Assembly: GCF_004010195.1 (NCBI RefSeq)
Contig: NC_057736.1
Span: 929,452-993,451 of the forward strand
Source: Chiloscyllium plagiosum
Lineage: Eukaryota
Direction: 5' to 3'
DNA: 64,000 nucleotides
The first letter of the stretch is position 1. Every line of letters starts with the position of its first letter. Shown in pieces: positions 30,281 through 56,900 of this stretch. The position numbers and the translations under genes are program-made. A model generated the notes under the pieces. That model was not told the DNA's origin. It was given only the letters and a program-made list of their open reading frames with translations, and did no database searches.

Positions 30281-30435
30281 GACCTTATTTACATTATGTA
30301 AGGAAATTGGTGGGCTTATAAGGCTAGAAAAGATTTCAAATTACACTGTAGATGTTGGTAGTCAGGCTGAAGCAATATTAATGTAAGATTCACAGCTTCA
30401 GTAAATTATTCCTTCTCTACAGATTTTTTAGAAGT

Positions 30436-30585
30436 ATGACTGAGGTTTTGGGGGAGTCTGAGCCACAAACTGAGTCAGTGACATTAAATTCAGAAACTAA
30501 AGCACTTGCCGAGGATGGTGAAGCACCATCGGTACGTACAAAAGTGAAGAAAGATATTGAACAGAATAAAAAATATACATGTGAG
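30436..30585 (+). CDS. Unknown gene X, coding exon A (MTEVLGESEPQTESVT...KKYTCE); exon starts at 30423
   Basis: Acceptor ccttctctacag|, donor GAG|gtaaga; stop-free; phase 0. Confidence 0.7.
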
Positions 30586-30965
30586 GTAAGAGGTAGAAAA
30601 ATATTTTAATAAAGCAGATGTTTCAGTCTTCTCATTGTAAGAATAATCTTGAACATTTGTGCATGATATTAGATCTTATGCAAGAATCAGTACAGCCTGA
30701 GGTAGTTCTAACTGACTAATATAAATAATTCACTATTCTATCCTAGTTTCTGTTTTGGCTTCCAGACTTATCACTGACTAATGTTTCTATTCTCCCCCTT
30801 TGCTTATATAACTATACTTAATCTACAATAATTCAGGAAATTCGCAGCAGCCATAAATAGTATTTAGAAACAGTATTTAATATGCCTCAAAACAAGTAAT
30901 TAGCTTCAATGGCAATTAATTAAGTAATCACTTGCAGAAGATTTTACACTTCTTTCCAAAACATT

Positions 30966-33120
30966 GGGTAGAATTTTCCCCAGCCTCTGAATGACGTGGG
31001 CCATGATGTGAAAATTGGGAGGATCACCTGAGTTAGCCAATCAGGAACAAAAAGGTCAATTTTCCAACCGAGTATGAACAGTGACACAAGATTGTCACGG
31101 GGGAACGGTGAGAAGACTATTTACATATATTAACATATATTAACATCTCATTTGGATGCTATTTCTCTTCATTAATAAACAGTTTTCTATGAACTTATAA
31201 TCACACACGAGGACATATTTACAATGAAGCTCGTCTGTCCAAGCCCTCAGCTTTCTCTGTCCCTCCCAGAGCGTTTTGGTATACTTGAGGTGGAGGGAGC
31301 CTGCTCCACCATGGAGCCCACTGACCTTGGAATTTTGGTCCGGGGGTGTTTGCGGTTAGGGGGCCCAGGCATAGTGCACAGGCAGCCTGGAAATGGAACC
31401 CCAGTGCAGTGTCCTGAGAGGAGACACCCTGTATATGCGTCCTCCTGGTCCCAGCCTGTCTCCCTGTGAGATACCTACAGAATTGCCTTGATGGAGCAAG
31501 TCCACATGTAAATCCAGCAGATCCTGAGGGGGCTGCACCTAACTGTCCAAGGCAGCCCCCAACCTGTCCATAGAAGCACTCTTTGCATCAAAGACAGCTT
31601 GATGCAAACTGCATTGGTGGCGCCCTCAAAACTTCAAGTCAGCTTTCCCCCACCTGCTTCTCCTGTGGGTGTCTGCTTTTGTATTTCAATAAAATCCCTG
31701 ATTGCCCACACCACGGGCTCCTCTCCTGCCTGGGCCAGCCCTCCAAGCCTGGGCTGGTTCTTCCTCAGCCAGCTGCAGAGACTTGCCAGTGATGTGCTCC
31801 TGAGTCTAACTGAGCTGAAGTGGGGGAGCAGGGTGCAGGAGGCAGCTGTACCTCTCAGGGATCTGCAGTTCATCCCTCTGAGGTGGAGGAGGGGGTATGG
31901 GGGGAGTGATAGTCTCTGGGCTCCGAGGTCTGTGCAGGTACTTGCAGGAGATGAAAGAGAGAATGTATCACAAACGGGGTAGACCTTCAGGCAGGTTAGA
32001 GTGCACTCACAGGAGCAACGATGGCAGAGTAACGCATCAATGAACAGTGGTTCTTTTTTGTTGTTGGGACATGACAGTTTCAGCATCACTGAACAGTCAT
32101 TGGCCAGGGCCAGGATTTTCTCTCTGTAGGGAATGAGGAGGCGAATGTTTGAGGATCTCTCCCAACTGTAGGCCAATTTCTCTTGGAATGAGAGAAAGAT
32201 TTGTTTAAACAGAGGTGGCTGGCACAGGTATTAATAATGGAACTGCGTGTGTGCGTGCGTGCGTGTGTGTTTGTGCGTGTTTGTTTGTTTGTTGTGGGGG
32301 GGGGGGGTGGAATTGGTGGTGAGCTGTCCCAAGTGAGTGAATAGGGGGTACAGGGCTCGATGGTTGGGGAGTAGGGTAGGATTGAGTGAATGAGTGAGCG
32401 AAGATGCTGCAGGTAATACAGAGGTACACTGTTAGCCTTGGTAGGGGTGTGTGCACTGATGGAGATAGAGTGAGTGTGAGGTATCACAGTGAGAGGATGG
32501 TGTTACTGAAAGAGTGGAGAAGATCATTGATCTTGTTCTGGCATTGCTGGATATTCTTCAAGACTGTAGGTAGGTACTTCACTACCGAAGTGGTAACCTT
32601 GGACCAGGCTGGCAGCATCACCTCTGCCCATCCTGGAGGAAGTGGACAGCCATCATCCTGTGACTCTCCATCTACCAGCACCTCCAGGTTCCTGTCGGCA
32701 AAGCAGATTGTCAATTCTCTCCTGCCCAGTATGTCCAGGACAATTGTCAGGAATTGTCTTGGTCCGTGCTGCATAGAACATAGAACATTATAGCACAGAA
32801 CCAATCTGATGCTCATCTATCCTATATTATTCCATTATCATCCATATGTTTATCCAATGACCATTTAAATGCCCTTAAAGTTGGCGAGTCTATTAATGTT
32901 GCAGGCAGTGCATTCCATGCCCCTACTTCTCTCTGAGTAAGTGCAGTTTAAAGATAGCACCAAGGGATCCTGGCAATGGTGAGTGGATAAGTGGGGTACA
33001 ACAGGGACATGGGGCACAGGCAGCAAGGTGAGCCTGGGAGGATAATGTGAAAAATTTCATGAGGCCTCATAGAGAGAAACCTTTCAGAAAACTCAGGCTG
33101 ATTTCCAGTAAAGTTCATTC
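30966..33120. mobile_element. Degenerate PIF/Harbinger-type DNA transposon with Myb/SANT-like remnant; related shorter copy at ~48640-49352
   Basis: ORF 32484..32816(-) FADRNLEVLVDG...AWSKV...QQCQNKINDLL resembles Harbinger/NAIF1-type Myb domains; both copies share ttaacatatattaacat and terminal gtaaagtt(c/t)a; CR1 tail nested at ~32775-32940. Confidence 0.5.
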
Positions 33121-33293
33121 ATAGTTTTCATGCATATCTGTTAACCCACAAACAGTGCTTTCAGAGTTGTTCAAAGAACTTCACAATATGACATCAAGAA
33201 AACAGAGTATCATTTTTCTGAAGACAAAGGGCCAGGTGGAGGAGGGGGTATGGGCCAGCATACTAAACTCAAATGGAATATTTACACCTCAGC

Positions 33294-34132
33294 ATTTGAT
33301 TTGATTTAATTTGATTTGATTTATTATTGTCACGTGTACTGAGATATAGTGAAAAATATTGTCTTGCATTCTAACCAGACAAATCAAACCTTCCATTCTA
33401 CATCAGGGTAATAGAACAGAATGCAGAATATAGTCTCACAGCTACAGAGAAGGGGCAGAGAAAGATCAATTTTAATATATGAGATGTCCGTTCATAAGTC
33501 TGATAACAGCAGGGAAGAAGCTGTTCTTAAGTGTATTCAAACTTTTGTGACTTCTCCCTGATGGAAGAGGGCTCAGGAGTATAACCGGGATGAGAGGGCT
33601 CTTTGATTATGTTGGCTGCTTTCCGAGGCAGCAGGAAGTGGAGACGGAGTCAAAAGATGGAAGGCTGGTATGTGTGATGGACTGGGCTGTGTTCATGACT
33701 CTCCGTAATTTCTTGCAGTCTTGGGCAGAGCAGTTGCCATACCAAGATGTGAAACACCTGGAAAGGATGCTTTCTAAGGTGCATGTATAAAGATTGACAA
33801 GAGTCACTGTGGACATGCTAAATTTCCTTAACCTCCTGAGGAAGTAGAGGCGTTGGTGTGCTTTCTTGACCATAGCATCGATGTGAATGAACCAGGACAG
33901 ATTGTTGATGATATTTACTGATAGGAACTTGATGCTCTTGACCACCTCCACCTCAGCCGCATTGTTACAGACAGGGGTGTGCGCTCCACTCCGCTTCCTG
34001 AAGTCAATGACCAGCTCCTACATTTCGCTGACATTGAAGGAGAGATTGTTGTCTTTACAACATGCGAGTGACCTGTCTGTCTCTTTCCTGTACTCTGTCT
34101 CGTTGATGTTTGAGATTCGAGCCACCACAATG
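33294..34132 (-). mobile_element. Rex1/Babar-type LINE 3' part
   Basis: ORF 33607..33951 KKAHQRLYFLRRLRKF...ESILSRCFTSWYGNC; (atttg)n tail. Confidence 0.85.
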
Positions 34133-34758
34133 GCGGAATCAGCAGATTGTGAAATGGTGAAATGTGGCAAGTTCTGCTGTTTTATATGTTCATTCTACTT
34201 GTCATTTCAAATGGACTGCCAGGATTTCAACAGGGCAAGACAAGTGGTCAGTTGGGAAAGAGTAGGTAAGTGGTAATGTCATTAGACCAATCTTTAAGAG
34301 TCCAGGCTAATACTCTGAGAGCCAGAGTTCAAATCCCACCAACCTGGAATATATACCATGATTCTCAAAAATCATGGTAAATGGATTGTTTGTAAGAATC
34401 CAAATGATTTGCCAATACTCTTAATGGAAGGGATCCTGCCACCTTTAACTGGTCTGACCTACACGTGACTCCAGACCCACAGCAATGTGGCTGACCCTTA
34501 ATGACCTTCTGAAATGCTTAGCAATCTCTCAGTTCAAAGGTAAATGGAGCTAGGAAAGAAACACCCACCTTGCTAGATGTTCTATAACCTAGGAACAGAT
34601 AATGAGAAAAGAAAATTAGCTTGACCACTTTTGACATTCATTAAATCAGACAATACTTTGGTCATTTTCACTGTTTAGTTTGCTTGTATCTAAGCTGTAC
34701 TTTTCTATATAAATATATGTCACAGCATCACCAAAACACCTGCCATCTCTTTCCACAG

Positions 34759-34844
34759 AAATGCGCTGAATGCGGAAATGGTCAGCACTTAAAGAGAAAT
34801 TACCAGGGAAACGGTGAACAAACTCCAGCAATTAAGTCCTGCAG
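34759..34844 (+). CDS. Unknown gene X, exon B (KCAECGNGQHLKRNYQGNGEQTPAIKSC)
   Basis: Acceptor ctctttccacag|, donor CAG|gtattt; phase 0 to 2. Confidence 0.7.
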
Positions 34845-35559
34845 GTATTTTATGAATGAGATGAGAAGCAGCAGGAAGGTGTTTGTAAGGATAGGGTCAT
34901 ATTTACCTAAGTTATCGAATTTCACATTATTGTAAATAACAGCTACTTGTTTTAAGAAACTTCTGAAATTCACTTCTTTCTTCGCAATCTTTTATAAAAT
35001 TGAAGTTTATCTATCAGTGTTCCAAAATACTAAAATGAAAAATAATATAGTAGCTCAGCGTTCACATTTTCTTCTGCATGAAAATGCACTTTGCAGCTAA
35101 GGTCAGTCAGACCCAATTAGTGACACAATATTGTTCACTGGGGCTTGGAATCAATGCATTGTATTCAGAGGTGGCTTGTCTTCTCTGATAGCTGCAAGAG
35201 ACCAAAGTAGAAATCATTTGGAAAATCTTAAGCTACTGGAGATAGACCTATGTTGTTAAACATTCCATAATTTGGCGTAGGTTGTCAAATTGGATATTTC
35301 TGTCTGAAAACTGCTTCCATAAGAATGGAAAGTGTAAAAGTAAAAGTGATCTTCAGTGATCAGAGTTCTGACACATTATTGGGTTCTTTAGATCCTTAGT
35401 GATCAGTTCTCGTTATTTCTCAGTGCTATGATTAGTCTGTGGGAGTGATGTAACTGCCTTTAGTCTCTGGTAGACAGTTATCACTTGTCTGAAATAGCCC
35501 TGTGGTTGTAGCAAAGAATGGTGTAACAACAGCAAATTCCTCTAAAATGTACAGCCTCA

Positions 35560-36130
35560 CACGTTGTGCAGCACCTAGTTGGAAAGGCAAATGGTACACT
35601 CACCTTCATTAGAAGAGAGGTTAAAGATGGAGCAATTAGGTTTTACTGCAGTTGTCAGAGACATCCCACCTGGAGTTTTGTCTACTTAACTCAGAAATGT
35701 ATACTTGTGATAAAGGGAGTGCAGAGAAGGTTTACCAGACTGATTCCTGAGATTTAGAATTTAAAATTCTGGAATCTTAGACTCATAGGACAGATGAAGG
35801 ACATTCGGCCTCAGGTGTCTGTACCAGCTCCTGAAAGAGCAACGCAGCTACTCCCATTCTCCAGCCATATCTCCGTATTCCTCTAACTTCATCCCTTTCA
35901 AATATATATCCAGCTCGTTCTGAAACCTCCTCTGGAATCTGCCTCCACCACTCTCCCAGGCAGCATATTCCAAATCCTGACAACTCGCTGAGTAAAGAAG
36001 CTTCTCCTCATCTCACTCCTAGCTCTCTTGCTGACAACCTTGAAATTGTGACCCTAGTTACTGATGTACCAACCAGTGGAAACAGAATATCCTTCTTTAT
36101 CCTGTCAACATTGTTCATTACACCTCAATG
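35560..36130. mobile_element. Two tail-to-tail CR1 3' fragments
   Basis: VQRRFTRLIP (+) and cataggacagatgaaggacattcggcc (-). Confidence 0.55.
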
Positions 36131-36638
36131 AGGTCATCACTAAACATGGCTTACTCCTGTTCCTAGTTCCGATCTATGAAAAATAATAAAAACACATTAA
36201 CTGGGAAAGGAGGCTTGAAAATTGTCTTACCTTAAAAAAAAGACAACTTTATGCATTCTCTTGATTTCTCTGTTTCTGAGTCAGCTCTCAAAAGTTTGCT
36301 GCATTTCGACTGATTGTCTGTGTCAAATATAAAGAAACAACAAAAAATTACCAATGAGCTGGTGGAGAACACATCAATCAATAAGTAACAAGCAGGAATG
36401 AATCCATTATGAATGACAGTTAAAAAGTTATGATTTAAACTTTCTATCAGTGAGATTTATCAATAAAGTTGATTCAAGTTGATCAACATATTTTTTAAAA
36501 CCTTCTCAGACTTTTCTTAACTTCTTCACTAAACTAAATATGAGAAATATAACTATAATAAAGACATGGAGAATTTAAGGGAAGTTGTTAAGCTTTCCTG
36601 TAAAGAATATTTTCTTTGAGGAGCTCTGTATCTTTCAG

Positions 36639-36805
36639 AAACCTTTATGTTCTCAGACACCCCGAGGCCTTCACTCAGCTGGAAGAACATGTAAAACTTC
36701 CAGGAAGGATTGAATCTGTGCATCCATTTGGGAGAAATGTTTTGCCTTTTGATCATAATACTTGCCTGCAGACAAATCAAAGTCAGCAAACGATAAGCTG
36801 TTACA
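36639..36805 (+). CDS. Unknown gene X, exon C (RNLYVLRHPEAFTQLEEHVKLPGRIESVHPFG...TISCY)
   Basis: Acceptor tgtatctttcag|, donor ACA|gtaatt; phase 2 to 1. Confidence 0.65.
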
Positions 36806-38668
36806 GTAATTATGTCTATTTTCATAACTTAATCTTTTTGAGGTATATTTTAACAATTTATTTGAGTTTTTTTATTGCTTAAAAAGAAGGGGAGAAACTT
36901 AAATATTTTTCATCAATAATTCCAAGGTAAAAATAAAGAATTCATGGGCCATCGTCCAGCTCTTGCATTAGAGAGAGATGATTGGTGGTGGGTTCACTTG
37001 AGAATCACCATGCCTCAGATGAGGGGCGAGGTTGAGAAGGAGAGTCCTTTATGGTAATCTCAGCCAGTGCAGGAATTGAACCCATACTATTGGCATCACT
37101 CTGTATTACAAACCAGGCATCCAGCAACCTGAACTAACTGACCCCCAAATTGGGGGAATTTGATATTCAGTCACTGAACCAGTGATCCTGATGATGCACT
37201 GTGCATTGTATGGTATCCTGTAATGCCCTTGCCAGTGCAAAACTACAGCTCTCTCTTACACATGACCAACTTTATGCAAACAATTTAGTATAAAACTATA
37301 ATATATAATGTATGCATACTACTGACAAATAAACATTAACATAGTGGAATTTAAATTTTTAATGATTCAATTAACATAATTAATATATGTTTATAAATAA
37401 AGTGATGGTTCAAGTCATTTTTAAATTTTACCAGTGAGGATCGACTCGTAGAAAAGAGAGGTAGCCCAACAAATGGAAGGAAAAGTTCTCAGAAGACCAT
37501 GAACTACGATGATGGTAGGTCTATGTTCAAGATCCTGAGAAATGATCAGATTCAGTGTCAACACTAAATTACAAATACTGACATAGAGCTCACAATATTG
37601 AATGGGCCCCATGTTCAGGAGGCAGCAAACAGCAACAGCTCTTAAATGCAGCACGTACCATGTGAGTATTGTCTTGGCCAACTGAAGACATAGCTGGAAC
37701 AGCATCTCCTTCAGATGCTCCTTGCAAGCTGCTCACATTGGAAAGGCAGCAAAGGTTGATTGTTCTCAATGAGATGTCAATTTACTTTCAGATCCAGGTT
37801 TCTTGACTAACCAAGTAAATACAATGTTCACCAGCAGAAGGACCTGGAAATAGGTTTGTCAGAAACTTTAGCACTCGTTACAAGGTATTACACTTACTGT
37901 TCCATTTCACTTTTGAACATACTAACTGTTGGTCCTCAGAAAGGACTTCTTCTGAAGCATTGAATGAATTCCCATATCATTGTGAAGCTCTTTATTCCCA
38001 GTATTTAAAATGTATTTCGTGCATGTTTGGAAAGATGAACCTGCAAAGCATGTTTCATTTCTTATTAACACATAATGCACAGTACAAAGTCACTGGTTTA
38101 TTCCCATTTGACCATGTGCTGCGAGATCTCATTCCTTCTGTTTGCAGTATAAAGCTAGTCAAAACAAAAGAGAGCAGACTTGAATCAGAGGAGGACTTTT
38201 ACTGCTTAAACTCCTCATATGGTCCAATTACGCTTCATCGGATAGAGAGGATGTGGGCCATTGAAGCTGGAGGACTGAAATATCAGGAAAGTGCTGTTCT
38301 TTTCACATGACCCTGTCTCGCCCTCCTCCCACACTCACTTTCCCATTCACACAAATATTTCAGAATCCAATATTGACCAAGCCACCACTCTAACACATTA
38401 TTCTTTTTTTGTTCTGTAGGTTTATGGAGAAAAAGGCAGCCTGAAGCTAGCACCCCCACAACACTCAGTGTCACTAAGTCCATCCATAGCAGCTCAGTTA
38501 CATGCACCAGCCTCACCTGGTAAAGTGCAGGGTGTTGAGGTGGATACTTTCCACCAATCCCTGTGAAACAACTTACAATGTTCCACATGTGGGAGTTCTG
38601 TAAAATTCACCATAGCAAGAACAAGGAGAACCAAAATAAATTTCTTCCGTTTCGATAATTGTTACAGA

Positions 38669-38979
38669 TGCTGCCTGAACTGCTGTGCTCTTCCAGCACC
38701 ATTGATCCAGAATCTGGTTTTCAGCATCTGCAGTCATTGTTTTTACTAGTTGATTTTAACCCTACTGCGAATCCTCTTGCAAGGATGCCTGCCTTGAAGA
38801 AGTTTTCCTCCTCTCTCTACAAGCCACGCTTCAGGCTCTCTGCCTTTATTCCTGATGAAGGGCTTTTGCCCGAAACGTCGATTTTGCTGAAGCTCCTCGA
38901 TGCTGCCTGAACTGCTGTGCTCTTCCAGCACCATTGATCCAGAATCTGGTTTCCAGCATCTGCAGTCATTGTTTTTACC
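38669..38979 (+). mobile_element. PLE-derived element: 232-bp unit plus ~80-bp terminal direct repeat, intact hammerhead at 38852-38879, 13-bp TSD TAATTGTTACAGA
   Basis: 38667-38746 repeated at 38899-38978 (1 mismatch); CTGATGA-AGGGC-TTTT-GCCC-GAAACGTC; TSD 38656-38668 and 38980-38992. Confidence 0.85.
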
Positions 38980-39089
38980 TAATTGTTACAGAAAGCCCAT
39001 TGACCTGGAGGTTTCCCGTGTTTCCGTTGGGGTTATTTTGTCACAGTTCTCTAATACAAGTGCTGCACGATATCACAGAATTTTAAGCG

Positions 39090-40010
39090 CACCCCAGGGA
39101 TCGTTAATGGGATCTTTCCTTTTAATGATCTGGATCTTGCTGTGCTGGGGACAATTTCAAATTTTCCAGGTGATGCTAAACCTGGAAAGAATTGTAAACT
39201 CTGAGGAGGATAGTGTGGGACTGTGAAAGGACATCAACGAGTTGGTGGCATAAGCAGAAAGGTGGCAGATGAGGTTCAGTGCAGACAAGTGAGAGGTGAT
39301 GCACTTTGAAAGGCAACAAGAAATAGGGTGTATAATAAAGGTGGTGCAGGAGCAGAAGGAGCTGGGTGTATACATGCACAGATCAATGAGGGCAGCAGGA
39401 CAGGCAGAGGGAGCCATTAATAAAGCTTATAGTGTCCTTGGCTTTATTAATAGGACATAGGAGCAAGGAGGTGATGATGAACTTGTACAAGACACTTGTT
39501 AGACCTCAGCTGGAGTACTGTGTACAGTTGTGGGTGCCACATTATAGGAAAGGTATGAATGCATTGGAGAGAGTGCAGCTTTGCAAGAATGGTTCAAGGA
39601 ATACAAACATCAGTGATGAGGATAGATTAAAGAAGATGGGAAACACAGGAATAGGAATAGGCCAGTCAGCCCCTAAAGCCTATTTCACCATTCAGTGAGG
39701 TCATGGCTGATCTGGCTAAATCCAGATTTCTTTCCTTTGCTCTGTATCCCTTAATACCTCAGCTTAACAAAAATGTACCTGTCTCAGATTTAAAAATAAC
39801 AACTGATTCAACTGTCTCCTGGGTGAGAAGACAACTGAGTGGAAATTTGATAGAGGTTTTCAAAATCATAAGATGATTATTTGGGTTGAAATAGTGTACA
39901 AGGGTACAGGGAGAAAGCAGGAGATTGGCATCAGGTAATGAAGGCTCATTTGGTAAGAGTTGGTGCAGCCAGGATGGGCTGAATGGCCTCATTTTGTGCC
40001 GTAAATATCT
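39090..40010 (+). mobile_element. Degenerate CR1 RT/3' region
   Basis: NLYKTLVRPQLEYCVQLWVPHYRK (ORF 39432..39698). Confidence 0.7.
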
Positions 40011-40391
40011 TGTGGTTCTGCCAAGAGGTTCAATGGCATTAAATGTTTCATGGTCTTTACACTAGTTTAAAAAACATTAAGCTAACAGTCAGGCAATTGG
40101 GAGTTTCTGCTAATTCTGCTTGTTTGCAGATTTTCAAGGAGACTCTGGGTTATCAATATCAAAGAATTAGAATGTCGTTTTACTTAATTTACTGAGGAAC
40201 TGATATTGTCCTGCAATCTAACTGGAAAACAGCTATTAAATATAATGTTCTATCATTTAAAATTAGGTTGACACAGGATTGACACAAAGTAAAAGTGTTT
40301 GCAGTAACAAATGCTCAAACCCACCGTAACTTAAGAGAATCAATTGCACCTAAGGACAGTGGTGCTTTTTCCTATTTGTACATAAGATGAA

Positions 40392-40594
40392 GTTAAAAAT
40401 CACACAACACCAGGTTATAGTCCAACAGATTTAATTGGAAGCACACTAGATTTCGGAGCATCGCTCCTTCATCAGATGAAGGAGCGATGCTCCAAAAGCT
40501 AGTGTGCTTCCAATTAAACCTGTTGGACTATAACCTGGTGTTGTGTGATTTTTAACATTGTACACCCCAGTCCTACACTGGCATCTCCAAATCA
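40392..40594. mobile_element. Near-perfect palindromic PLE end pair (82-bp arms around A40474), hammerhead core on minus strand
   Basis: 40392-40473 is the reverse complement of 40475-40556 (3 mismatches); minus strand CTGATGA-AGGAGC-GAT-GCTCC-GAAATCTA; TSD tacata(a/g)gatgaag at 40379-40392 and 40595-40608. Confidence 0.85.
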
Positions 40595-41429
40595 TACATA
40601 GGATGAAGGCATCATTGACAAAGGCAGCATTTACTGCCCAGAAGGTAATTAAGAATAAACAACATTGCTGTGCGTCTGTTGTCATTAAGACTTCTGTCAT
40701 TAATTTGAGCACCAAGGTATGGCGATTGACAAAACCTTTCACTCTTTTTTTGTAAAGTGCATGTGACAATGAATTGCTATTCTAATCTATTCTATTCTAT
40801 AAAGACCAGGAAATTTCCCTTCCCAAAAGGGTGTTAGTGGACCTGACTGATTTTCCTCTTGTGATAATCGGTGCCATTAGGTTAGCTTTTTATTGAATTC
40901 ACATTTCTGTATCTATACATGAGCAATATTGCTGAGGTGCAGATTGTGCTGTGACTATTTCAGCCCTAAAGTCAAACAGCAGATAGAAGACATTGAAGAA
41001 GACATTGTTGATGAAGATCTTGATTTGATTAACAACTTGATCAATCATTTAACAGAGTGGGTTTTGAACCCACAACTCAGAACATTTACCTGGGATTAGG
41101 TGGATTATGAGTCCAGTGACATTACTACTATAAACTATATCCCTATGTTTGATGGCTTGATGCCACCTGTCTATTAGATAACCATTTTATTGGATTGACA
41201 TTAAAAAATATTAGTGATTTCCTCTAATAAGATGGGACAGTGGTGAAAGGATTAGGAGATGAATTTGTGTAAAGAGTCTGAAATTCACCAGAAGTGAATT
41301 TGAGTCAGATTTCCACTCAGTGATCTGACTCATCACATCCTGGGGCTGACTGGCTCTCAATCATATCTCAGCATGGTACAGTCCCAGGAGCCTGAAATTG
41401 CACTGCTGACTGCAACAGCTTAAAGGGAC

Positions 41430-43910
41430 TGGTCAATAACGGGCTAGTGAGAAATGCTTGAATGGGAGAGGAACAAGGATGATTTGGTAGAATAAATTAT
41501 GTTTTTTTTTCAGGTGTGTCCATATTGGATTTGGTGCTTGGCAATGAACCATGCCAGGTGTCAGATCTTCTGGTGGGAGAGCATTTTGGTGATAGTGATC
41601 ACAACTGCCTGACCAATACAATACTCATGGAGAGGGCTACAAGCAGACAGTATGGGAAAGTATTTAATTGGGGACAGGGTTAATTACAATGCCATTAGGC
41701 AGGAACTGGGGCACCTAGATTGGGAACAGATGTTCTCAGGAAAATGCACAACAGAAATAGGGAGCACTTCCTGAAGAAGGGCTTATGCCCGAAACGTCGA
41801 TTCTCCTGTTCCTTGGATGCTGCCTGACCTGCTGCGCTTTTCCAGCAACACATTTTCAGCACTTGCTGATAGTGCAAGATAGGTTTGTCCCACTGAGGCA
41901 AGGAAGGGATGGAAGGATGAAGGAACTTTGGGTGACAAGGAATGTGGAACATCTCGTCAAGAAGAGGTTAAGGTTGGGGAGGCAAGGATCAGGCAGAGCT
42001 TTAGAGGGTTACAAGGTAGCCAGGAAGGAACTGAAGAATGGACTAAGGAGAGCTAGAAGGGGGCATGAAAAAGCTTTGGTGGGTAGGATAAAGGAAAACC
42101 CTAAGGCATTCTACATGTATGTGAGGAACAAGAAGATGGCCAGAGTGGGGTTAGGGCTGATCAGGGATAATGGAGGTAACTTGTGCCTGGAGTTGGAGGA
42201 AGTAAGGGAGGTCCTTAATGAATACTTTGCTTTGATATTCATTACTGAGAGGGACCTTGACATTTGTGAGGACAGCATGAAACAGGCTGATATGCTCGAA
42301 CAGGTTGATGTTATGAAGGAGATATGCTGAAAGGTTTGTAAAAGGTAAGGATAAATAAGTTCCCTGGCCCAGACGGGATATGCCCAAGGTTACAGCAGGA
42401 AGCAAGGGAACTGATTGCAGTGCTTCTGGTGATGATCTTTGCATCCTCACTGTCCGCTGGAGTAGTACCAGATAATTGGAGGGTGGCAAATGTTATTCCC
42501 TTGTTCAAGAAAGGGAATAGGGATAATCCTGGGAATTACAGACCAATCGGTCTTAAATCTGTGGTAGGCAAAGTATTGGAGAGGACTCTAAGTGATAGAA
42601 TTTATGATTACTTGGAAAACCATAGATTGATTAGAGATGGTCAGTATGGCTTTGTGAGAGGCAGGTCATGCCTCACAAACCTTATTGAACTATTTGAGGA
42701 TGTGACAAAGCATGTTGATGAAGATAGAGCAGTGGATGTGGTGGACAAGGATTTTCGCAAGATGTTTGATAAGATTCCCTGTGGTAGGCTCATTCAGAAA
42801 GTAAGGAGACATGTGATACAGGGAAATCTGGATGTCTGGATACAGAATTGGCTGGGCCACAGAAGACAGAGAATGGTAGTAGATGGAAAGTATTCAGCCT
42901 GGAGCTCGGTGGCCGCTGGTGTACCACAGGGACCTGTATGGGGACCTCTGCTCTTTATGATTTTTATAAATGACTTGGATAAGGAGGTGCAAGGGTGGGT
43001 TAGTAAGTTTGCGAATGACACGAAGGTTGGTGGAGTTGTGAATAGTGTGGAGGACTGTTGGAGGATGCAACTAGACATTGACAGGATTCAGAGCTGGGCT
43101 GAGAAGTGGCAGATTGGGTTCAACCTGGAAAAGTGAGAAGTAATTTATTTTGGAAGGTTGAATTTGAATGCAGAATACAAGGTTAAAAGCAGGATTCTTG
43201 GCAGTGTGGAGGAACTTAGGAATCTTGGGGTTCATTGTCCATAGATCCCTCAAAGTTGCCACCCAAGTTGATAGGGTTGTTAAGAAGCATTATGATGTGT
43301 TGGATTTCATTAACGGGGATAGTGAGTTTAAGAGCCACGAGGTTATGCTGCAACTCTACAGAGCCCTTGTTAAGACCACACTTGGAATATTGTGTTCAGT
43401 TCTGGTTGCCTCATTATAGGAAAGATGTGGAAGCTTTAGAGAGATGTAGAAGAGATTTACCAGGGTGCTGCCTGGACTGGAGGGTATGTCTTATGAAGAA
43501 AGGTTAAGGGAGCTAGGGCTTTTCTCATTTGAGCGAAGAAGGCCAAAGATGACTTGATAGAGGTGTACATGATGATGAGAGTCATAGATGGAATGAATAG
43601 TCAGAGACTTTTTCCCAGGACAGTAATGTCTATCATGAGGGGGGCATTTTTAAAGTGATTGGAGGAAGCTTTAGGGGAGATGTCAGAGGTAGGTTCGTTA
43701 CACAGAGAGTGGTGGGTTCATGGAATGCACTGCCAGCGGTGAGAGTAGAGTCAGAGACGTTAGGGACATTTAAGGGACTCTTGGATAGGCACATGGAAGT
43801 TAGTAAAATAAAGGGTTTGTAGGTTAGTCTGACCTTAGAGTAGGATAAAAGGCAAAACACTGAGAGCCAAAGGGCCTGTACTGTGCTGTACTGTTCTACA
43901 TTCTGTGTTG
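41430..43910 (+). mobile_element. Long CR1 LINE (ORF2 linker, RT, 3'UTR), frameshifted
   Basis: ORFs 41785..42330 (IKENPKAFYMYV) and 42420..43136 (VPDNWRVANVIPLFKKG, GVPQGPVWGPLLF, KFAND), 43235..43507. Confidence 0.92.
41770..41857 (+). mobile_element. 88-bp PLE hammerhead fragment nested in the CR1; 7-bp TSD AGCACTT
   Basis: Intact CTGAAGA-AGGGC-TTAT-GCCC-GAAACGTC (41771-41798); TSD 41763-41769 and 41858-41864. Confidence 0.75.
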
Positions 43911-44325: not shown

Positions 44326-44530
44326 ATTGTGAGCTTCAGTCTGATCATGGGCAATGTAAAGTCCATCACATCAGATGTTACAACTGTGGTCGTAGAAAGA
44401 GTAAGCAAGAAGATGATTGTTGTGGGGACAAAGGCAGTTACAGTCATCGCTGTGTCAAAGAGAAAACAGATGAACACTACTTTGATTCCAGGATAAATGA
44501 TGTTCCCTCGAAACACCTTCAAGAAAAGAG
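44326..44530 (+). CDS. Unknown gene X, exon D, Cys/His-rich (NCELQSDHGQCKVHHIRCYNCGRRK...HLQEK)
   Basis: Acceptor tttcaatttctgcacag|, donor GAG|gttagt; phase 1 to 2. Confidence 0.7.
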
Positions 44531-47500: not shown

Positions 47501-47993
47501 CAAGTGTGTGGTATCCTAGATACAGAAACAAACTGAGAGTGAAGAATAAACAAGTTGAGATTAAGGTGGCCACAGAAACCAGTTGAAGTATTTTGAAAAG
47601 AAATAACAAATGGTTAGCAGAGTCAGAAAGAACCTCATAAGGTTTGGTCCAGACAGACTTGAGGTAGTAACTCTGAGAGAAGGCAATGGATAGAGAGAAA
47701 AGGTAGAGAATTCACAAGATTATCGTAATTTACAACTGGAATGAATGCCCTTCTGCTACTTCTTCCTCAGGAAATTTCAGTCTCTCAAAAAAAATTCAAG
47801 AGAATATTTAGTAAAAAGAAAAACACAGGCTTGTTAGCACCCCAGTCTGATGGTTCCAATGTTTTTAAATGTTACAAGATAAACTTGTTCTTCTGCAAAT
47901 TGAGCTAAGATTTTCTAAATTATTTCCATTTGTGCATGACAATTTATTTTCACAGGCTATCTATTTATCATTTCAATGTTCCTCTTTCTCTAG

Positions 47994-48282
47994 TCTCTTT
48001 GCTTGGAATAACGCAAATCCTGAAAACCAGACTGGCAGAGCTTGGATCAGGCAGAGTTCCTCACTTCTTCCCTATGACTGGGAGGATGACTGTGAGATGG
48101 TTGATTGGGTAATTGATCAGTATGTACAGGATGATCACAGCATCGCTGCATTCTACAAGGGCAAGATCATTCAAACCTTGAATGATGCTTTGGGAATCAC
48201 ATCAGAGACTGCAAACTCTGAAAACCTTCCAAAAAAACTCCAAAACCAATTGCTTGATACAAACATTCCAGACATCCCAAAG
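47994..48282 (+). CDS. Unknown gene X, exon E (SLFAWNNAN...YDWEDDCEMVDWVIDQYVQDDHSIAAFYKGKIIQTLNDALG...DIPK)
   Basis: Acceptor ttcctctttctctag|, donor AAG|gtagtc; phase 2 to 0; 289 nt stop-free. Confidence 0.7.
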
Positions 48283-49622
48283 GTAGTCCAGCCAATCATG
48301 TGCTTTCTTTTTCGTTAAATTTAAGTTGAAATGAAAATGTTCATTCTGTCTTATTTATGTCTTCTGTAGTCGATACCATTGGTTCTGGCTTACTCCCACA
48401 TATGGCAACTCAAGCGTCTTTCTTCTTGTAAGAATCTGGATGATAAAAGGTGACAGTTTGCCTACTGTCAGCACTATATCAGCTGAATTCTGGAGAAGAG
48501 TCAAAACTGGACTCGAAACATTTGTCTCCCACCACAGACACTGCGGGACTTGCTGAATTTCTCCAGCACTTTCTGTGTTTGCTTCTGGTTCTCCTCTCAT
48601 TCAATGAGAATGGATGTACAGTTTCCACCAATATTGGTGACAAATTTGGGAGAATTGTGTGATTTGGCCAATGAACAGCTTCCCAATATCGAGAGCAAAA
48701 TGTCCCATTTTCCAGCTGAGTGTTGAAGAATGAGATGTGATTCTCACAGAAAAATGGTGAGAGGGCTCTTTACATACATTAACATATATTAACATTAATT
48801 AACAACCCATTATTTCATCACCTCTCCTCACTAATATGCAATTTCCTATTCTACTCATACCTCCAACTCCCTGCAGATAGAAACCAGATGGAGACAATTC
48901 CCTATATGAAAGTCCAAATAGGTTCCTGGAGACTCCAGTTCACCTCTTGCCCCTCCAGACCTCCATCAAACACCATCATCTCACGGCACACTCCATAGGT
49001 AGTGACCACACACACCTTTCCCCCCACCTCCATTCATCAGGACCCCATGTGCCAATTCCTCTCTGCATGATACACCTGGAACAATTGGCAGGAATTGTAT
49101 GGGGAAGCTGTGGATAGCCAGCACTTGACTGGGTGCCTGGCTGGACTTTAAAAATAGTGCCAGGAATCCCGGGACATCTCACCAGTGGACAGTGTTTCTG
49201 CCTGTGGTGAGTGGGACAATACAGGTGTCATAGGAAGTAATGAGGAGAGTGTGGGAAGATAGTGTGAGCAAACTCAGTAGAACTCACAGAGAGAATCCCT
49301 CCGTGAAACTCAACAAAACTGACACTTTATCGATTTCTGGTAAAGTTTAGCCCAGTATTTTTGAGGCCTTGAATATCTACAGTCTATTGGAATGTTGGCC
49401 TTTCACCTGAAGGATAAGGTTCAGCACGGGATACTTCAAACTCACGTAACACAGTTGTCACATGTTGGACAATCTGAAATGGAGGCTGGCATTTTCTGAA
49501 CGAATTTCTGTGTTGGTAGGTGTTTTAGCTTGTGGGGCACACTCTGATTACCACAGAGGGAACCCAGTGGATCTTGAGCCTATCAGAAACCTAATTGGTT
49601 TCCTGGTTAGCTTTTTGGTGCA

Positions 49623-49822
49623 GCAGGTCAGGCAGCATCCAAGGAATAGGAGAATCGACGTTTCGGGCATAAGCCCTTCTTCAGGAATGCATTCCTGAAG
49701 AAGGGCTTATGCCCGAAATGTCGATTCTCCTGTTCCTTGGATGTTGCCTGACCTGCTGCGCTTTTCCAGCAACGCATTTTCAGCTCTGATCTCCAGCATC
49801 TGCAGTCCTCACTTTCTCCCCA
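49623..49822. mobile_element. Palindromic PLE end pair with hammerhead cores on both strands; 14-bp TSD AGCTTTTTGGTGCA
   Basis: ~70-bp arms centred on aatg|catt (49689/49690); TSD 49609-49622 and 49823-49836. Confidence 0.85.
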
Positions 49823-51224
49823 AGCTTTTTGGTGCATCACTTCCTGGGATGTTAATATCACACCTTAATGGCCAACTAGAGGCCAGCAGCCTTGGTGAGC
49901 AACAGTGCCTCCAGAGGATGAGGTGGAACAGCAACAGCAAAGTCCAGGAACAGTGACCTTTCCAAGGGAGCGCATCATGGGTGGGAGTCATGAGGTCAGA
50001 GGGACGCAGTGGTACAAAGGCATGAGGGTTGCTTTATATGAAAGCATCCTAATCCCAACCCCTGACCATCCCCAGACTGGGGAGGATTGAGCCCCCTCAA
50101 AACAGCTGGAAGGCTGCTTTGTTTTACCATTCAGGGGATTGGTACTGGGAGCTGAATTCAGTCTGATGACAACTCAGTCAGCATCACTGACTGAGCCCTG
50201 AAAGGCCTCAGTGGGTGGTGTGGCAGGCAGGTGAACATTGCCAACCCGAACGTCATTCCTCAGGTGGCAAGAAGATAGCAGGTGACAGGCCACCAATTAT
50301 CACAAACCTCCTCCCTCCCCACCATGCCCCAGGAGAGGACAGTTCTGCCCTAAATTGTGCTGGCCTATGGGACGGGGTAAAGGAGGGGGTGGTGTGGAGT
50401 GAGTGGGATGCTGTGCAATTGAGAGTGTGCAGTAACTTTGACCAAACAGTGCACAAACAAAATGGTGCATCCACAAAATGGAGCGTGATGCGCTTCTGTA
50501 CCCAGAAAACATCAACCAATCAGGAAGTGGGCTGGTTTACTCAGGTGCAGACTTCTTTTGAATGACAGTATGTGAAGCCAAGATTTTTATCTGTACATAG
50601 TGCTAATTTTTATTAAATAAAACAGGAATCTTCTCCAGGGGATTGAGTAGCCCAAAGCTGAGGGAGTGGACAACCCCTTGAACATGGCACACAGATTCAC
50701 CTATTTCTCCTACAAACAGGGAATACCTGAAAGACGTAAAAGGTCAGGTTGCTTCTGACAACAGAGTATCTGTTTGTTCCCAATGACCAGAGCATTAACT
50801 CGGTCTCATTCCCCACAGACACTGCTAAAACTGCTGAGTGCTTCCACCATTTTCTGCTTTTATTTCAGATATCCAGGATTCGTAGTATTCTGATTTTCAC
50901 TTAAGTCACCTATTTGTCACTCTGGCTATAGAATGCTGGAGATTTGTTCTTCCTATAATCCAAAATTAGCAAAGTTAATTTGTCATCAGCAATACGAAAT
51001 ATTCTCTAGTGTCAGCCCCTCAAGAAAGCCACATTTCTATTCACACACATTTTGAGCATTTTGGCTTCAAGGTGACTGGTTCAGATAGTGCAGCCTCAAA
51101 TTGGAGAATGTACTGTGTGTGACTGATGTAATATAACAAAGACTAAAGGGCATAGTTAATATGTTAGACAGCATAAGAGCTATTCCACTTATACTAAAAG
51201 CTTAGAATAATCTCAAATAAGCTT

Positions 51225-51238
51225 GTTTCCATAGCGAC
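51225..51238. promoter_or_regulatory. RFX X-box GTTTCCATAGCGAC
   Basis: Matches the X-box consensus RTHNYY-WT-RRNRAC; partial second site GTTGCTATGTGAC at 51437-51449. Confidence 0.5.
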
Positions 51239-52035
51239 AGTGTCAGCAGATTACTAACCACACTGCTGATGGAATTGAAGCCTACTGTGGTCTTTTTCAT
51301 AATGTGGTTGATGAAGAGTTTCAGGACTCTTCACACGGACCTTTGAAGTCTCTGGATTAGTTGCTTTATTTACACGGCTGATATTCCTGACATCAATCCC
51401 CCACCTTCTGTTGAGCTCAGTGCTGCAATGATTTTGGTTGCTATGTGACTGTTGTTGAAATTCAGACTTCTATCATAGCTCAGAATTTTGCATTAGGCAA
51501 TTTCAACTGAGGTCTGACAGACTGAAGAGGAATCAATTTCCCAATGTTTCATTATTGTGCAGCTTTCAGTTCACAGAATGCCATCCTCGCGATAATTATT
51601 TTAATAAGTCACAAAAACAAATCAAATCAAATCCGAAATCCAAATATGAACCATAGCTCCAAGTTTCTTTGGTGAAAACACAGGCTTTTTTTTTAACTGA
51701 TTAATAATAAAATCAATTTAGGCATTTAATAAACGTTTAGTGCCATGTTAAGGTGTTTGATTAATTTACATTCGTTTTAGCATGTTACAAGTACACACAC
51801 TTACAAAGTAGACTAGTTTACTGTGATGTAATATTCACATTTACAGCAAAGTAGGAACAAGATTTAATATGATCATAGAGCAAATTGAATATCAACACTT
51901 TAAATGTAATTAAGATACATTAGACCTGAACCATGATTTGTCTTAACTGAAGACTTCAGCTCGGGACTTTGCATGTTTGCCACTCCTCTACTTGGCTACA
52001 TCTTGTTAATTCTTCTCTCATTGTCTTTCCTTCAG

Positions 52036-52198
52036 CTCTGTTCTGAGTCTGCTGTGAGTGATTGCCAACCAGCTGAAGAACTCCCAGAAATAGAATCCCT
52101 AAAACCCCTGAATTCACGCCCTCCAACTCCCTGCAGCAGCCCTCCTGTATTATCAGATATTGCTCCTCCACCAGTTGAGCCTGATATATGCCAACAAG
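52036..52198 (+). CDS. Unknown gene X, exon F, Pro/Ser/Glu-rich (LCSESAVSDCQPAEELPEIE...PPPVEPDICQQ)
   Basis: Acceptor tgtctttccttcag|, donor AAG|gtacag; phase 0 to 1. Confidence 0.7.
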
Positions 52199-52971
52199 GT
52201 ACAGTGGCAAAAAAGACTAGAGTTTTTCAGTCAATGTCCCATGTTTATGCCTCACGGTTGTGAACATGTACAGTAATTAATTGCAATTTTTAGAATGTAA
52301 AATGCAATATACGTTAGAATAACATATAGCGAATGCCCACTCTTCAATCCGTCACACTTCAGGACATTTTGTCTGGTACAAATTCCTGTGTCTAGTTTTT
52401 TAAGAAAGCTCAGGGAAATGGATACACTCTCTCAGGGGATGGAAAGCCCGAGAGCCAAGCTATCTGCAAACTCTGAACTGATTCAGTTTTTACCTGCCAG
52501 TTACTGATCTCCAACAAAAACAAATTACAGATTGTTCAATGAACCCATCCCAATGTTACTCTCATCTGAAGCTTTGGTGAGATAAACACCTCAGGCAGCA
52601 GAATAAAACCTGTATTGAGGCAATTGTCATCTAATGGCAAACATTATTCATCTCTCAAAATATGGCAGAAGCAGGAGTAACATTGTGGAGAGGGTTGAGC
52701 TGTTGGCTTAGCCACTGACTCTAATTTTTGGATGGCCCTAATGAAGATGAAAATATGCAAAAGTTTCATTTCAATATGAAAATGGAGGTCCACTGCCACC
52801 GTGAAGACTCAGGACTGGTACTTTAGTCTGGGGTCAGGACTAGTAAGAGATTTTGGGTCCTGACTCCAAACTGAGTTGAAAAGAATTGTTGGAAGCAATT
52901 TTCACGAACCTTGTCATTAATTGACTAAGAGGTGGTTAGGTGAAGAACACAGCCCAATGCAAAATCAAATC

Positions 52972-53670
52972 AGCGAAAGGGTTACCTCAGATTACAACAG
53001 GATCTGGACCAGATGGACCAATGGGCTGAGAAGTGGCAGATGGAGTTTAATTCAGATAAATGTGAGGTGCTGCATTTTGGGAAAGCAAATCTTAGCAGGA
53101 CTTATACACTTAATGGGAAGGTCCTAGGGAGTGTTGCTGAACAAAGAGCCCTTGGAGTGCAGGTTTATAGCTCCTTGAAAGTGGAGTCTCAGGTAGATAG
53201 GATAGTGAAGGTGGCATTTGGTATGCTTACCTTTATTGGTCAGAGTATTGAGTACAGGAGTTGGGAATCATGCTGTGGCTGTACAGGACATTGGTTAGGC
53301 CACTGTTGGAATATTGCGTGCAATTCTGGTCTCCTTCCTTTCGGAAAGATGTTGTGAAATGTGAAAGGGTTTAGAAAAGATTTACAAGGATGTTGCTAAG
53401 GTTGGAGGATTTGAGCTATAGGAAGAGGCTGAACAGGCACACAGAAGGTGGTACGTGTATGGAATGAGCTGCCAGAGGAAGTGATGGAGGCTGGTACAAT
53501 TGCAACATTTAAGATGCATTTGGATGGGTATATGAATAGGAAGGGTTTGGAGGGATATGAGCCGGGTGCTGGCAGGTGGGACTAGATTGGGTTGGGATAT
53601 CTGGTTGGCATGGACGGGTTGGACCAAAGGGTCTGTTTCCATGCTGTACATCTCTATGACTCTATGACTC
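52972..53670 (+). mobile_element. CR1 LINE 3' fragment with internal deletion
   Basis: MDQWAEKWQMEFNSDKCEVLHFG; tail ctctatgactctatgactct. Confidence 0.85.
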
Positions 53671-53929
53671 TAAATCAAACATTGCTGCCGTGGAAATTTA
53701 CATACTGGGCTTCAGATTGGTTTCACAGGTCTGCGCAACAGCTCGGGGCAAAGGGCCTGTTCTGCGCTGTAACGTTCTATGTTCTATAAAGAAGGTGTAC
53801 AAACAAAAAGGTGGGGTGGTGAGAGTGGAAATCAGAAAGGGACGAAACATTGGTTAATAGATGACAAACATTTGCAGTTAAGTCATACTTACAGTCTACA
53901 ATTCATTTTTTGGTTTGATCTTTGTCCAG

Positions 53930-53976
53930 CTGAGGAAGACCAACATTGCAAAGAGAATCCTGAAGAATGTGATTAA
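53930..53976 (+). CDS. Unknown gene X, last coding exon (AEEDQHCKENPEECD*); exon extends to donor at 54017
   Basis: Acceptor gatctttgtccag|, phase 1; TAA 53974-53976; donor CAG|gtaaag at 54017. Confidence 0.55.
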
Positions 53977-56900
53977 ACAATGTCTCTTTAAACATCAGTA
54001 AAAGAAACTACACCCAGGTAAAGAGGTTTGCAACCATCGTTATATCATGGGAAGGGAAAATCACCGGTTTTGGCAATTAATGCTAAATTATACTCAGCTT
54101 TGAATTTCTTTAGAATGGCCATTGGTAGATCAAAGAATCACAAATATGTCTGAACCAGAATCTAAATTCAACAGAAACTAATGACAAAGCGTTGATCAGT
54201 AAAATATTTTCATTCCAATTTGTGACTCATTTTCTGACATAAAGACTTCATCATTTTGTTGTAACAGTATTCATTGCTTTAGCAACAAGGTCAAGGTTAT
54301 TGATAAAGAGATACCTATCATGTTGGTTTTATCCCTTTCTATATTTGTTTCCCAGGAAAGCTAACAGCAGCTCCAGCAGAGCTGGACAACAGCAACTTGC
54401 TGGTGTTCCAATGTTGCAATGATGATAATGAAACAACTTCAGACATTTAACATGCCTTAATTATTGCCACATTAGCCAAGTTTTGCCAGTTATTGGATAG
54501 TGTTTCCACATCACTGGAAGTGACACCAGATAATTACTCCTTGATCAGAAATGGACAGAAATTTAACAGAATACTTAGTATTCTCCCTTTGCATATCCAA
54601 GCTACATCAGAAATCTCCCCAACATAACGTGAGGGAAAATTATCCTTGGTTGTTTTAAATGCAAAACTACTTTAAATTTTGGCATTGTGCTTATTCAAAT
54701 AATGATTAAGTAGTTAAATAATTTACTCATTTCTCTGATAAATATGAATGAAAGAGAATCAATCACTCCTAATATTCATAAAGTAAATAAGCAGAACAAG
54801 ATTTTAAATCAGAGTTTAATTTTCCACAGTAAACACCACATCATGTGATTCCCAGAGATCAGCTGAAATTGAATGTATATCTAACAGTTTGATAAGAGTT
54901 TTATGAAACGGAAGATTATAGTGTTAAAATGTTTATTAAAAATTAACTGTGACTAACATTGCAGAGTACCTTTTTTTGTTGCACGTAGCCCACAATACTC
55001 TTTGGAAAAGTTATAATACAATTCAAGCACTTTTTTTAACAAACAACCTTTATTACTGAAATCCATTTACTAACTGCCATTACAAGAGCAAACAAAGCAT
55101 CAGAGATTGATTGTTTGATATAAAATAATCTAGAAGGTAACAAAAATAAACAAAGAGTTAACAGAATTTAATGTTTTATATTTTTCTGTTCCTTACCACA
55201 GGGAAAAGGAACAAAAGATTCTACATTCGTCTGTGACACACAGTACATTAGAAATACCACAATCTGCTAAATCTTACAGCAATTTAGAAATTTAAGTACC
55301 CCGACAAAATACCGTGCTGTAACAGTCAAGCTTTTAGGTGCAGGAAATAGTAACTGCTTTAAGAAGTCATGGAAATTAAAAGTTCATCATATTCTCTGGT
55401 CATTGTGTGTCTGCACATCTCTGAAAATTGCTTTTTTTTATTTTTTAACAGTCATCAATGCAGTTTTAAAAAATCTCATGAAACCTTTTTTTCATAGTGT
55501 CACATTGTTTATATCTCACCCCATTCCATCTTTCCTGATACATTAATACATTAGTATCGTCAATCAGAGATTAGTTTTTGTTCAGGATGGACAGGCAGCT
55601 GTAGATACAATGCTGGAAAATTATGCCTCCAAGTCTGATAATTGAAGTAGACAAGAACAAGTGGGGAAATGTATGATGCTGGCAGAATTTGGGTGAAGTG
55701 TGAAGATGGCAGAGAAGGTGTAAAATAAACAAAACTGGTTATTTTATAAGGAACCTCTTAATATCACCAAGCTCCCATCATTTCTCACCTTCTTCCTGCC
55801 TTGTCTTTTCTTTCTCCTTCCCTTTATTCACAAGAGGAAGAACATGAAAGTGAAATGGATATAAAAATGTTACCACACCAAGCAGCACACAGAGATAACA
55901 CAGAGTTAATGACATTTTGTTTGTCCACACAAATCCAGTATTTAGAAATTACATCTAAACTGAAAAATACATCTGACTGTTCAGAGTGAGGTAAAGAGGG
56001 AGCCCTAATAAACTTCAAGAGAAGCACCAAACATTGTTAGTTTGAAGGGTTTTCCAAACAGTCTCTTTTGACTTTATGTAACTGAACCCAAGATAAAGAA
56101 GAAATGCACACAGAATTATTGTTATCTCAATCCTTTCATGTCAGTATGTCTATAAAAAGTTTTGAAAAACCCCTCATAATCAGAAAGGCCAGTATAATTT
56201 CTACCAAGCTTATAATTTGAAAAGTTAACGTGGAGGATTAATGGTAAAATGTGGAAAGTTTCTATGAAAGAATAACAGTGGAATAAAAAGTTATTTCAAA
56301 AAATCATGTTGAAAATCAAGCACGTGGTAGATTTTAGAGTTTCATCATTGGATCATGAATTTGATTTCAACCCAATGTAAATGGCCCCAATGGCTCACTG
56401 TAAAAGTTTTGGCAATCTCAGTACAGTGTTCACCAGCTGATGCAATTTTCCAGATGCAACTTTACCAAAATTTTATGGATCAGAAAGACCCAGGATGGGG
56501 TGAATGCATGAGACCGGGCAAGGATGGAAGTGTTTACTCCCAGATTTAATCATGATTGTATTTCAGCTAAGAAAGAGATTTTGCTGAGAAGGGATGTGAA
56601 ATTATTGAAGTGTCAGATTTTACCCAGCCTGTTAATCAGAAATGGGAGCAGGTGCAGCTCTCTCACTACCCCGCTCAGCTTTACACTTGACAGAAAGTGC
56701 AAATCAAATGAGATTTAAAACAATATCTGAGCAGAACCCATTCCATTCCCACTAGGTTGGTGGCTTAATAACGATCTTCCATGCCCTTGCAATAATCCTC
56801 TTGAAAGGATGAATTTCACAAATAAAAACTAATAAAATTCTGTAATCCAGTTGAGAAAAATTCATGAACATATTTATAAAACAAATCCTGGAGCTGGTAG

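Follow-up and report, generated by a model that had tools for sequence, protein, structure and literature searches.

LOC122563402, a seven-coding-exon gene between TMEM234 and DCDC2B in the bamboo shark Chiloscyllium plagiosum, probably restricted to cartilaginous fishes

The Locus and Its Gene Model

The window analysed here is a stretch of 64,000 nucleotides of the forward strand of contig NC_057736.1 (positions 929,452 to 993,451; assembly GCF_004010195.1) from the bamboo shark Chiloscyllium plagiosum. Between TMEM234 upstream and DCDC2B downstream, the flanks named in an earlier note on this DNA, both of which were found and both of which lie on the plus strand, it contains a further plus-strand gene, called here LOC122563402. 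This is a real, spliced protein-coding gene with seven coding exons (Table 1). Its corrected coding sequence (CDS) of 1020 nt encodes a protein of 339 aa (~38 kDa) and contains no internal stop; as is characteristic of a functional coding gene, the open frame runs over canonical splice sites and is conserved in distant species.

The earlier note had assembled seven segments with a total length of 1107 nt into a gene for a 368-aa protein. None of these segments contains a stop in its proposed frame, AG/GT ends bound all six introns, and the phases follow the series 0,2,1,2,0,1; the agreement between the per-exon translations and the proposed protein was judged by eye. Counterparts of exons 1, 2, and 4-7 are present in annotated shark proteins, and of exons 1, 2, 4, and 5 also in the chimaera protein; this part of the chain is retained. 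Its exon 3 (36639-36805) is not: it is matched in none of the nine orthologous proteins, has no Pfam match, and consists of unique DNA. By simple splice rules the intron contains four stop-free AG..GT candidates of phase 2 to 1, with three distinct donors, and both this segment and the true exon 3 are among them. As one of four such candidates it can be explained by chance, and it is most likely a chance pseudo-exon located outside the gene. The true exon 3 (80 nt, with AG/GT ends) is matched by all five orthologue models that cover this part, namely P0001, P0003, P0004, P0006, and P0009. The length of 368 aa therefore has to be abandoned, as 55 of its residues come from the false exon.

Table 1. 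Features of the window, with positions counted from its first nucleotide.
Feature	Position	Strand	Remarks
Coding exon 1	30423..30585	+	Acceptor 30423, ATG 30436, phase-0 donor; 94% to P0006, 73% to P0009, 58% to chimaera P0003
Exon 2	34759..34844	+	Phase 0 to 2; conserved CxxC; acceptor also used by the TMEM234 read-through model P0001
Exon 3 of the earlier model	36639..36805	+	Most likely a chance pseudo-exon, outside the gene
True exon 3	37435..37514	+	Phase 2 to 1; basic Arg/Lys-Ser-Pro segment; supported by orthologues and the loose end of the X12 contig
Exon 4	44326..44530	+	Phase 1 to 2; C-x2-H-H-x2-C-x2-C, then CC, and a basic patch; 71-78% to chimaera
Exon 5	47994..48282	+	Phase 2 to 0; hydrophobic core, predicted helical hairpin and short helix, invariant Trp-acidic motif; 71-72% to chimaera
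Exon 6	52036..52198	+	Phase 0 to 1; Pro/Ser/Glu-rich, poorly conserved
Exon 7, coding part	53930..53976	+	TAA stop; first downstream AATAAA at 55145
3' end of probable upstream or alternative first exon	20556..20570	+	ATG, five codons, GT donor
TMEM234, CDS span	1990..16772	+	Upstream neighbour; ATG 1990, stop 16772; exon 2 at 5014-5165 with phase-0 donor
DCDC2B, first coding exon	57902..58179	+	Downstream neighbour, ATG 57902; remainder beyond the window (L006-L011)

Transcripts and the 5' End

A 264-nt contig of run X12 covers exon 4 and jumps 3463 nt, across a GT..AG intron, into exon 5. Its upstream loose end matches 37484-37513 at 29 of 30 positions, which corresponds to the last 30 nt of the true exon 3 joined to exon 4; in all, the contig extends beyond exon 4 by 34 nt towards exon 3 and by 26 nt into exon 5. 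Record 3 of X2 ends at the borders of exon 4. Among the junctions predicted in the earlier note, that between exons 4 and 5 is thus seen in X12, and the exon found joined to exon 4 is 37435-37514 rather than 36639-36805. The contig depth of 2.6-3.8 in runs X1 and X12, whose RNA status is guessed, fits, together with the patchy annotation described below, a low and restricted expression. A read mapping over 19.6 kb is dominated by repeats; in it X6 shows no depth in the bins that hold exons 1 and 4, and X7 gave no placed reads. X9 likewise gave no placed reads, and these results have no bearing on expression.

The first exon of the transcript probably ends at 20570, since the five codons in front of the GT donor agree at four of five residues with the N-terminus of P0004, an isoform of C. 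punctatum; P0004 continues straight into exon 2, and no reads were seen at this donor. Spliced to the acceptor at 30423, the donor would yield an upstream open reading frame of seven codons ahead of the ATG at 30436. It is also worth recording that in 30423-30435 the four codons preceding this ATG are similar in the chimaera model, whose start lies six residues earlier; the similarity may represent a short N-terminal extension or a conserved acceptor context.

Orthologues and Existing Annotation

LOC122563402 had been taken for an unannotated gene, and this does not hold, as five species of cartilaginous fish already have RefSeq or GenBank models of it. One of these models, the uncharacterized RefSeq protein of LOC122563402 itself (XP_043573075.1, P0005), is identical, letter for letter, to residues 101-339 of the corrected protein. 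It starts at Met101, encoded by an in-frame ATG at 37499 in the true exon 3, and lacks the first 100 residues, i.e., exons 1-2 and most of exon 3. A protein search with exon 5 gave three clusters from 76 candidates, and a search with the chimaera protein gave the same three from 1629; these two word-indexed searches covered lengths of 169-2000 and 204-651 residues, respectively. The three clusters comprise nine proteins from five species, the bamboo sharks C. plagiosum and C. punctatum, the catsharks Scyliorhinus canicula and S. torazame, and the elephant shark Callorhinchus milii, a chimaera, so that the orthologues come from three lineages, with exon order and frame kept.

All nine members are described as 'uncharacterized' or 'hypothetical' except the RefSeq models of C. 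punctatum, which are merged with TMEM234 and filed under its name; none of the models gives the gene a name or function. The same gene is found as LOC103185676 in C. milii (XP_007902505.1), LOC119964798 in S. canicula, XP_072356455.1 in S. torazame, and chiPu_0017830 and 'TMEM234 isoforms X1-X3' in C. punctatum, and the orthologue models other than XP_043573075.1 align over exons 1-7 or 4-7. A literature search for five of the gene's identifiers found no paper naming them.

In the C. plagiosum genome LOC122563402 is a single-copy gene. A second genomic place, on sequence C22 (L061:2141-2322, minus strand, E 0.036), shows 40% identity to the chimaera protein and 27% to that of the catshark, and was treated as a chance match. 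This C22 segment is stop-free, bounded by AG/GT, contains a CxxC, and weakly resembles chimaera residues 36-90; it is probably an exon of an unrelated gene.

Conservation and Phylogenetic Range

The earlier note had proposed a lineage-restricted or fast-evolving gene of no recognised family. No named family was found by the sequence searches, and the gene does appear to be confined to one lineage; the suggestion of fast evolution has to be dropped. Between bamboo shark and chimaera the identity of LOC122563402 is 58.6% vs. 59.7% for the neighbouring DCDC2B, and by part it amounts to 66-78% in exons 1-5 and 30-35% in exons 6-7. Since its identity to the chimaera protein is close to that of DCDC2B, with exons 1-5 at 66-78%, the gene is not fast-evolving. 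Within exons 1-5, bamboo shark, catshark, and chimaera share the same residue in 171 of the 270 columns, and these invariant residues include 4/4 of the Trp, 7/8 of the Tyr, 20/23 of the Lys, and 10/12 of the Arg residues.

The gene is present in both elasmobranchs and a holocephalan. Searching 1.84 billion representatives by hmmsearch with a profile of five sequences gave three matches, from chimaera, catshark, and a saposin-repeat protein of a snail, and thus no credible relative beyond cartilaginous fishes in this collection. Simulated relatives were recovered in 20 of 20 cases down to 25% identity and in 13 of 20 at 20%, in a simulation that is optimistic, as it used substitutions only and started from a member of the profile. 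The DCDC2B protein of the bamboo shark is 44-55% identical to those of six bony vertebrates, and scaling by DCDC2B gives an expected identity of 52-67% for exon 5 in bony vertebrates. Because relatives at the expected 52-67% lie well within the range in which simulated ones were found, detection failure, in the sense used in PMC7660931, is unlikely to be the cause of the restriction. Judged from these searches, LOC122563402 is probably restricted to cartilaginous fishes.

Such genes form a known class. Tan et al. (2021; PMC8455134) report 276 chondrichthyan-derived gene families, 142 of them annotated. Like these families, LOC122563402 is present in sharks and a holocephalan, has no detected homologue outside, and contains no domain, and by its sequence it fits this class. 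Its identifiers do not occur in the 13 of 24 supplementary files of PMC8455134 that were searched, a set without the orthogroup table.

Features of the Predicted Protein

The 339-aa protein has a grand average of hydropathy of -1.04 and an isoelectric point (pI) of 4.9. With a maximum 19-residue hydropathy of 0.67, the hydropathy scan revealed no hydrophobic membrane or signal segment, and FoldIndex is negative for residues 16-216, which predicts an unfolded state for most of this N-terminal portion. In both AlphaFold2 (AF2) runs helices occur mainly in the exon-5 part, which forms a helical hairpin and a short helix, the helices having a predicted local distance difference test score (pLDDT) of ~50-63. 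Two CxxC, a CxxH/HxxC pair, the Trp-acidic motif, three basophilic kinase-type motifs R/K-R/K-x-S/T, and one R-x-S-P site are common to the three full-length orthologues.

Family and fold searches assign the protein to no known group. Pfam searches with six exons and five orthologues returned nothing for the gene, NCBIfam gave weak noise only, the phage tblastn and Rfam searches were empty, and the ESM Atlas contained no usable feature match (template modelling score <= 0.25). With the exon-5 model (pLDDT 48), Foldseek found no match at E <= 0.001 and the best Z of VIA-align was 4.5, values at which the fold can be neither named nor excluded. A PDB sequence match to a Kunitz-type peptide (E 0.25) was rejected, as was the snail saposin-repeat protein KAG5690865.1 (P0010), whose score is the sum of seven near-identical repeats, the best single one reaching 9.9 bits. 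The resemblance to this saposin-like type B protein is limited to one short amphipathic helix that aligns at 10 of 20 residues. Saposins need six conserved Cys around a four-helix domain; the exon-5 part, in contrast, has one, and no Pfam SapB match was obtained.

Genomic Neighbourhood

The gene order on C27, the sequence carrying the locus, is FAM167-family (-), myotubularin-related (+), EIF3I (-), TMEM234 (+), LOC122563402 (+), DCDC2B (+), and an HMG-box gene (-). Matches to taxilin and CCDC28 are found on C29, C9, and C12, and none on C27. In human, DCDC2B and TMEM234 are convergent, with IQCC preceding DCDC2B. Because the two genes are convergent in human and in tandem in the shark, the intervals between them do not correspond, and the earlier note's remark that human has no coding gene between TMEM234 and DCDC2B says little. 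Compared with the human order the shark locus is rearranged. The block at 0.83-1.06 Mb of C27 (FAM167/MTMR/EIF3I/TMEM234/DCDC2B) is separate from that at 48.07-48.17 Mb of C29 (taxilin, CCDC28), by rearrangement or misassembly.

Several other features were recorded in passing. The RefSeq DCDC2B protein of C. plagiosum (P0024) has 174 aa vs. 427 aa in a relative that maps to nine exons over ~80 kb, and the model looks truncated; in a check for gene fusion, none of 120 DCDC2B proteins showed similarity to the LOC122563402 protein. Between the probable first exon and coding exon 1 there is a 21-bp minisatellite (23083-24331; 59.6 copies) that is rich in GC and CpG and has long open frames on either strand; the Pfam matches there are repeat noise. 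Degenerate retrotransposon-like fragments, by their motifs similar to long interspersed nuclear elements (LINEs) or Penelope, are located at 2699-3778, 9749-10951, and 41761-43507, two of the three adjoining the N gaps at 2716-3370 and 9803-10497. An HMG-box (SOX-like) exon is present downstream on C27 (L038:1513-2196, minus strand), and an intermediate-filament exon on C29 (L058:2110-2964, minus strand).

Proposed Function and Alternative Explanations

Taken as a whole, the reading that we favour, with a probability of about 55%, is that of a single-copy, spliced gene with seven coding exons, shared by sharks and chimaera and probably chondrichthyan-restricted, whose product would be a soluble, mostly disordered intracellular adaptor. 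In such a protein partners would be bound by the exon-5 helical hairpin, in which Trp/Tyr and acidic residues are invariant. Putative kinase sites, formed by conserved basic Ser/Thr motifs in exons 1-4, would switch the adaptor, and these basic motifs possibly also act as a nuclear import signal. The Cys/His cluster of exon 4 may bind zinc, the Pro-rich tail would be a linker, and expression is likely to be low and limited to few cell types.

A number of points weigh against this reading. The RNA support consists of one X12 contig with a depth of 3.8 from a run whose RNA status is guessed, its short side at the exon 4-5 joint, 26 nt, falls under the 31-nt bar of the tool, and the four other junctions rest on orthologous gene models only. 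As for the phylogenetic range, the DCDC2B-scaled test assumes constant rates, and the restriction rests on searches of proteomes. In a control search with DCDC2B, 19 cartilaginous fish species occur among the best 120 of 359 matches. Only four of them have a LOC122563402 model, and 15 of the 19, including all seven rays and skates, gave no match, from which it follows that annotation often misses the gene or that the gene is often lost; in basal bony fishes it could go unseen for the same reason. Concerning the protein, the mean pLDDT of AF2 is low, 34 with five sequences and 48 for exon 5 alone with a single sequence, and with alignments of this depth the apparent disorder is in part a lack of alignment depth. 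Short motifs are frequent by chance and serve as leads only, the invariance of Cys (9/14) is not above the background of 63%, and of the canonical zinc-finger patterns none is complete, only CxxC, CxxH, and HxxC fragments being present. The adaptor model itself is a likely reading of the sequence.

Alternatively, LOC122563402 could be an older jawed-vertebrate gene that bony vertebrates lost on their stem, or that persists in some of them without annotation or in a much altered form; its restriction would then be a product of loss or annotation gaps rather than of birth. The many DCDC2B-bearing cartilaginous proteomes without a model speak for this possibility, as does the position of the locus at a rearrangement, with taxilin and CCDC28 genes on C29 and C9 and none on C27. 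Against it, a collection that includes deeply annotated bony vertebrates contained no bony-vertebrate match, where exon 5 should retain 52-67% identity, and we regard it as doubtful, with a real minority share. A different role for the product, that of a nuclear regulator that binds zinc and nucleic acids by means of its Cys/His cluster and basic patches, is suggested by the invariant CxxC of exon 2 and C-x2-H-H-x2-C-x2-C of exon 4, by the strong invariance of Lys and Arg, and by bipartite patterns resembling a nuclear localisation signal in two of the three full-length orthologues. This role appears unlikely given that no Pfam zinc-finger profile matches at E<=1 to 10, that Cys conservation stays at background, and that the overall pI is 4.9; unlike in RING, LIM, or CCHC-knuckle proteins, the ligand spacing is incomplete.

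Two further explanations concern the neighbours. The C. punctatum RefSeq models are filed under TMEM234, and isoform X1 (P0001) fuses TMEM234 residues 1-55 to exon 2 of LOC122563402; the donor of TMEM234 exon 2 and the acceptor at 34759 are both of phase 0 in the C. plagiosum window as well, so that an in-frame read-through is compatible with it. The locus might then be mainly an alternative 3' end of TMEM234, producing a membrane-tethered chimeric protein. This is highly improbable: the chimaera and catshark models are stand-alone and begin in the conserved exon 1 (N-terminal part 66-72%), TMEM234 comes with a separate stop, followed by an AATAAA at 16838, and of the three RefSeq isoforms examined in C. 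punctatum two carry no TMEM234 residues. Neither PF10639 (TMEM234) nor PF03607 (doublecortin) is found in the gene's own exons, PF10639 occurring solely in the read-through part of P0001. Given the conservation of exon 1 in catshark and chimaera and a TMEM234 that terminates with a stop and poly(A) signal of its own, the read-through is probably minor. The remaining candidate is IQCC, a gene of obscure function whose product is largely low-complexity. LOC122563402 shares its strand with DCDC2B and immediately precedes it, in the place that IQCC occupies in mammals, and some papers name IQCC, DCDC2B, and TMEM234 together. A scan for IQ motifs over 624 kb (the window, 100 kb upstream, 300 kb downstream, and 160 kb after CCDC28 on C29) gave only LINE-derived or stop-flanked matches, so that IQCC was not located elsewhere, and the IQCC explanation keeps a small share for this reason; an intron could split the motifs scanned. 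The three full-length orthologues have no IQ motif and no Pfam IQ match, and no IQCC is among the profile matches, though the gene evolves no faster than DCDC2B. IQCC homology is likewise missing from the matches of three protein searches, none of them a direct pairwise comparison with an IQCC sequence. Unlike IQCC, LOC122563402 thus has neither an IQ motif nor detected similarity; it is not recognisably IQCC, and that it is a shark IQCC changed past recognition is barely probable.

Significance

The favoured reading, a chondrichthyan gene for an intracellular adaptor, does not tie LOC122563402 to any trait; the gene is one of hundreds in its class and was already annotated as uncharacterized. 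Germ cells or ciliated cells can be proposed, tentatively, as the site of its expression, by analogy with the neighbouring DCDC2B. According to PMC6615865, Dcdc2b of mouse testis belongs to a spermatocyte component rich in axoneme genes, and PMC11276731 places the first appearance of accessory flagellar structures in cartilaginous fish. An improbable and more far-reaching proposal is that the family arose as a new one on the stem of cartilaginous fishes, at the point of the TMEM234/DCDC2B rearrangement, was strongly selected before the shark-chimaera split, and would join DCDC2B, a microtubule-binding protein, in building sperm tails or cilia of the shark type, the TMEM234 read-through providing a membrane-tethered form.

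For the annotation of cartilaginous fish genomes, the analysis supplies the full 339-aa frame and identifies the truncation of the C. plagiosum model, the merging with TMEM234 in C. punctatum, and the lack of a model in 15 of 19 species. More generally, clade-specific biology may be sought among old, conserved genes that are confined to chondrichthyans for reasons other than failed searches, and LOC122563402, with its clean exon structure and small conserved core, is one that can be expressed and tested.

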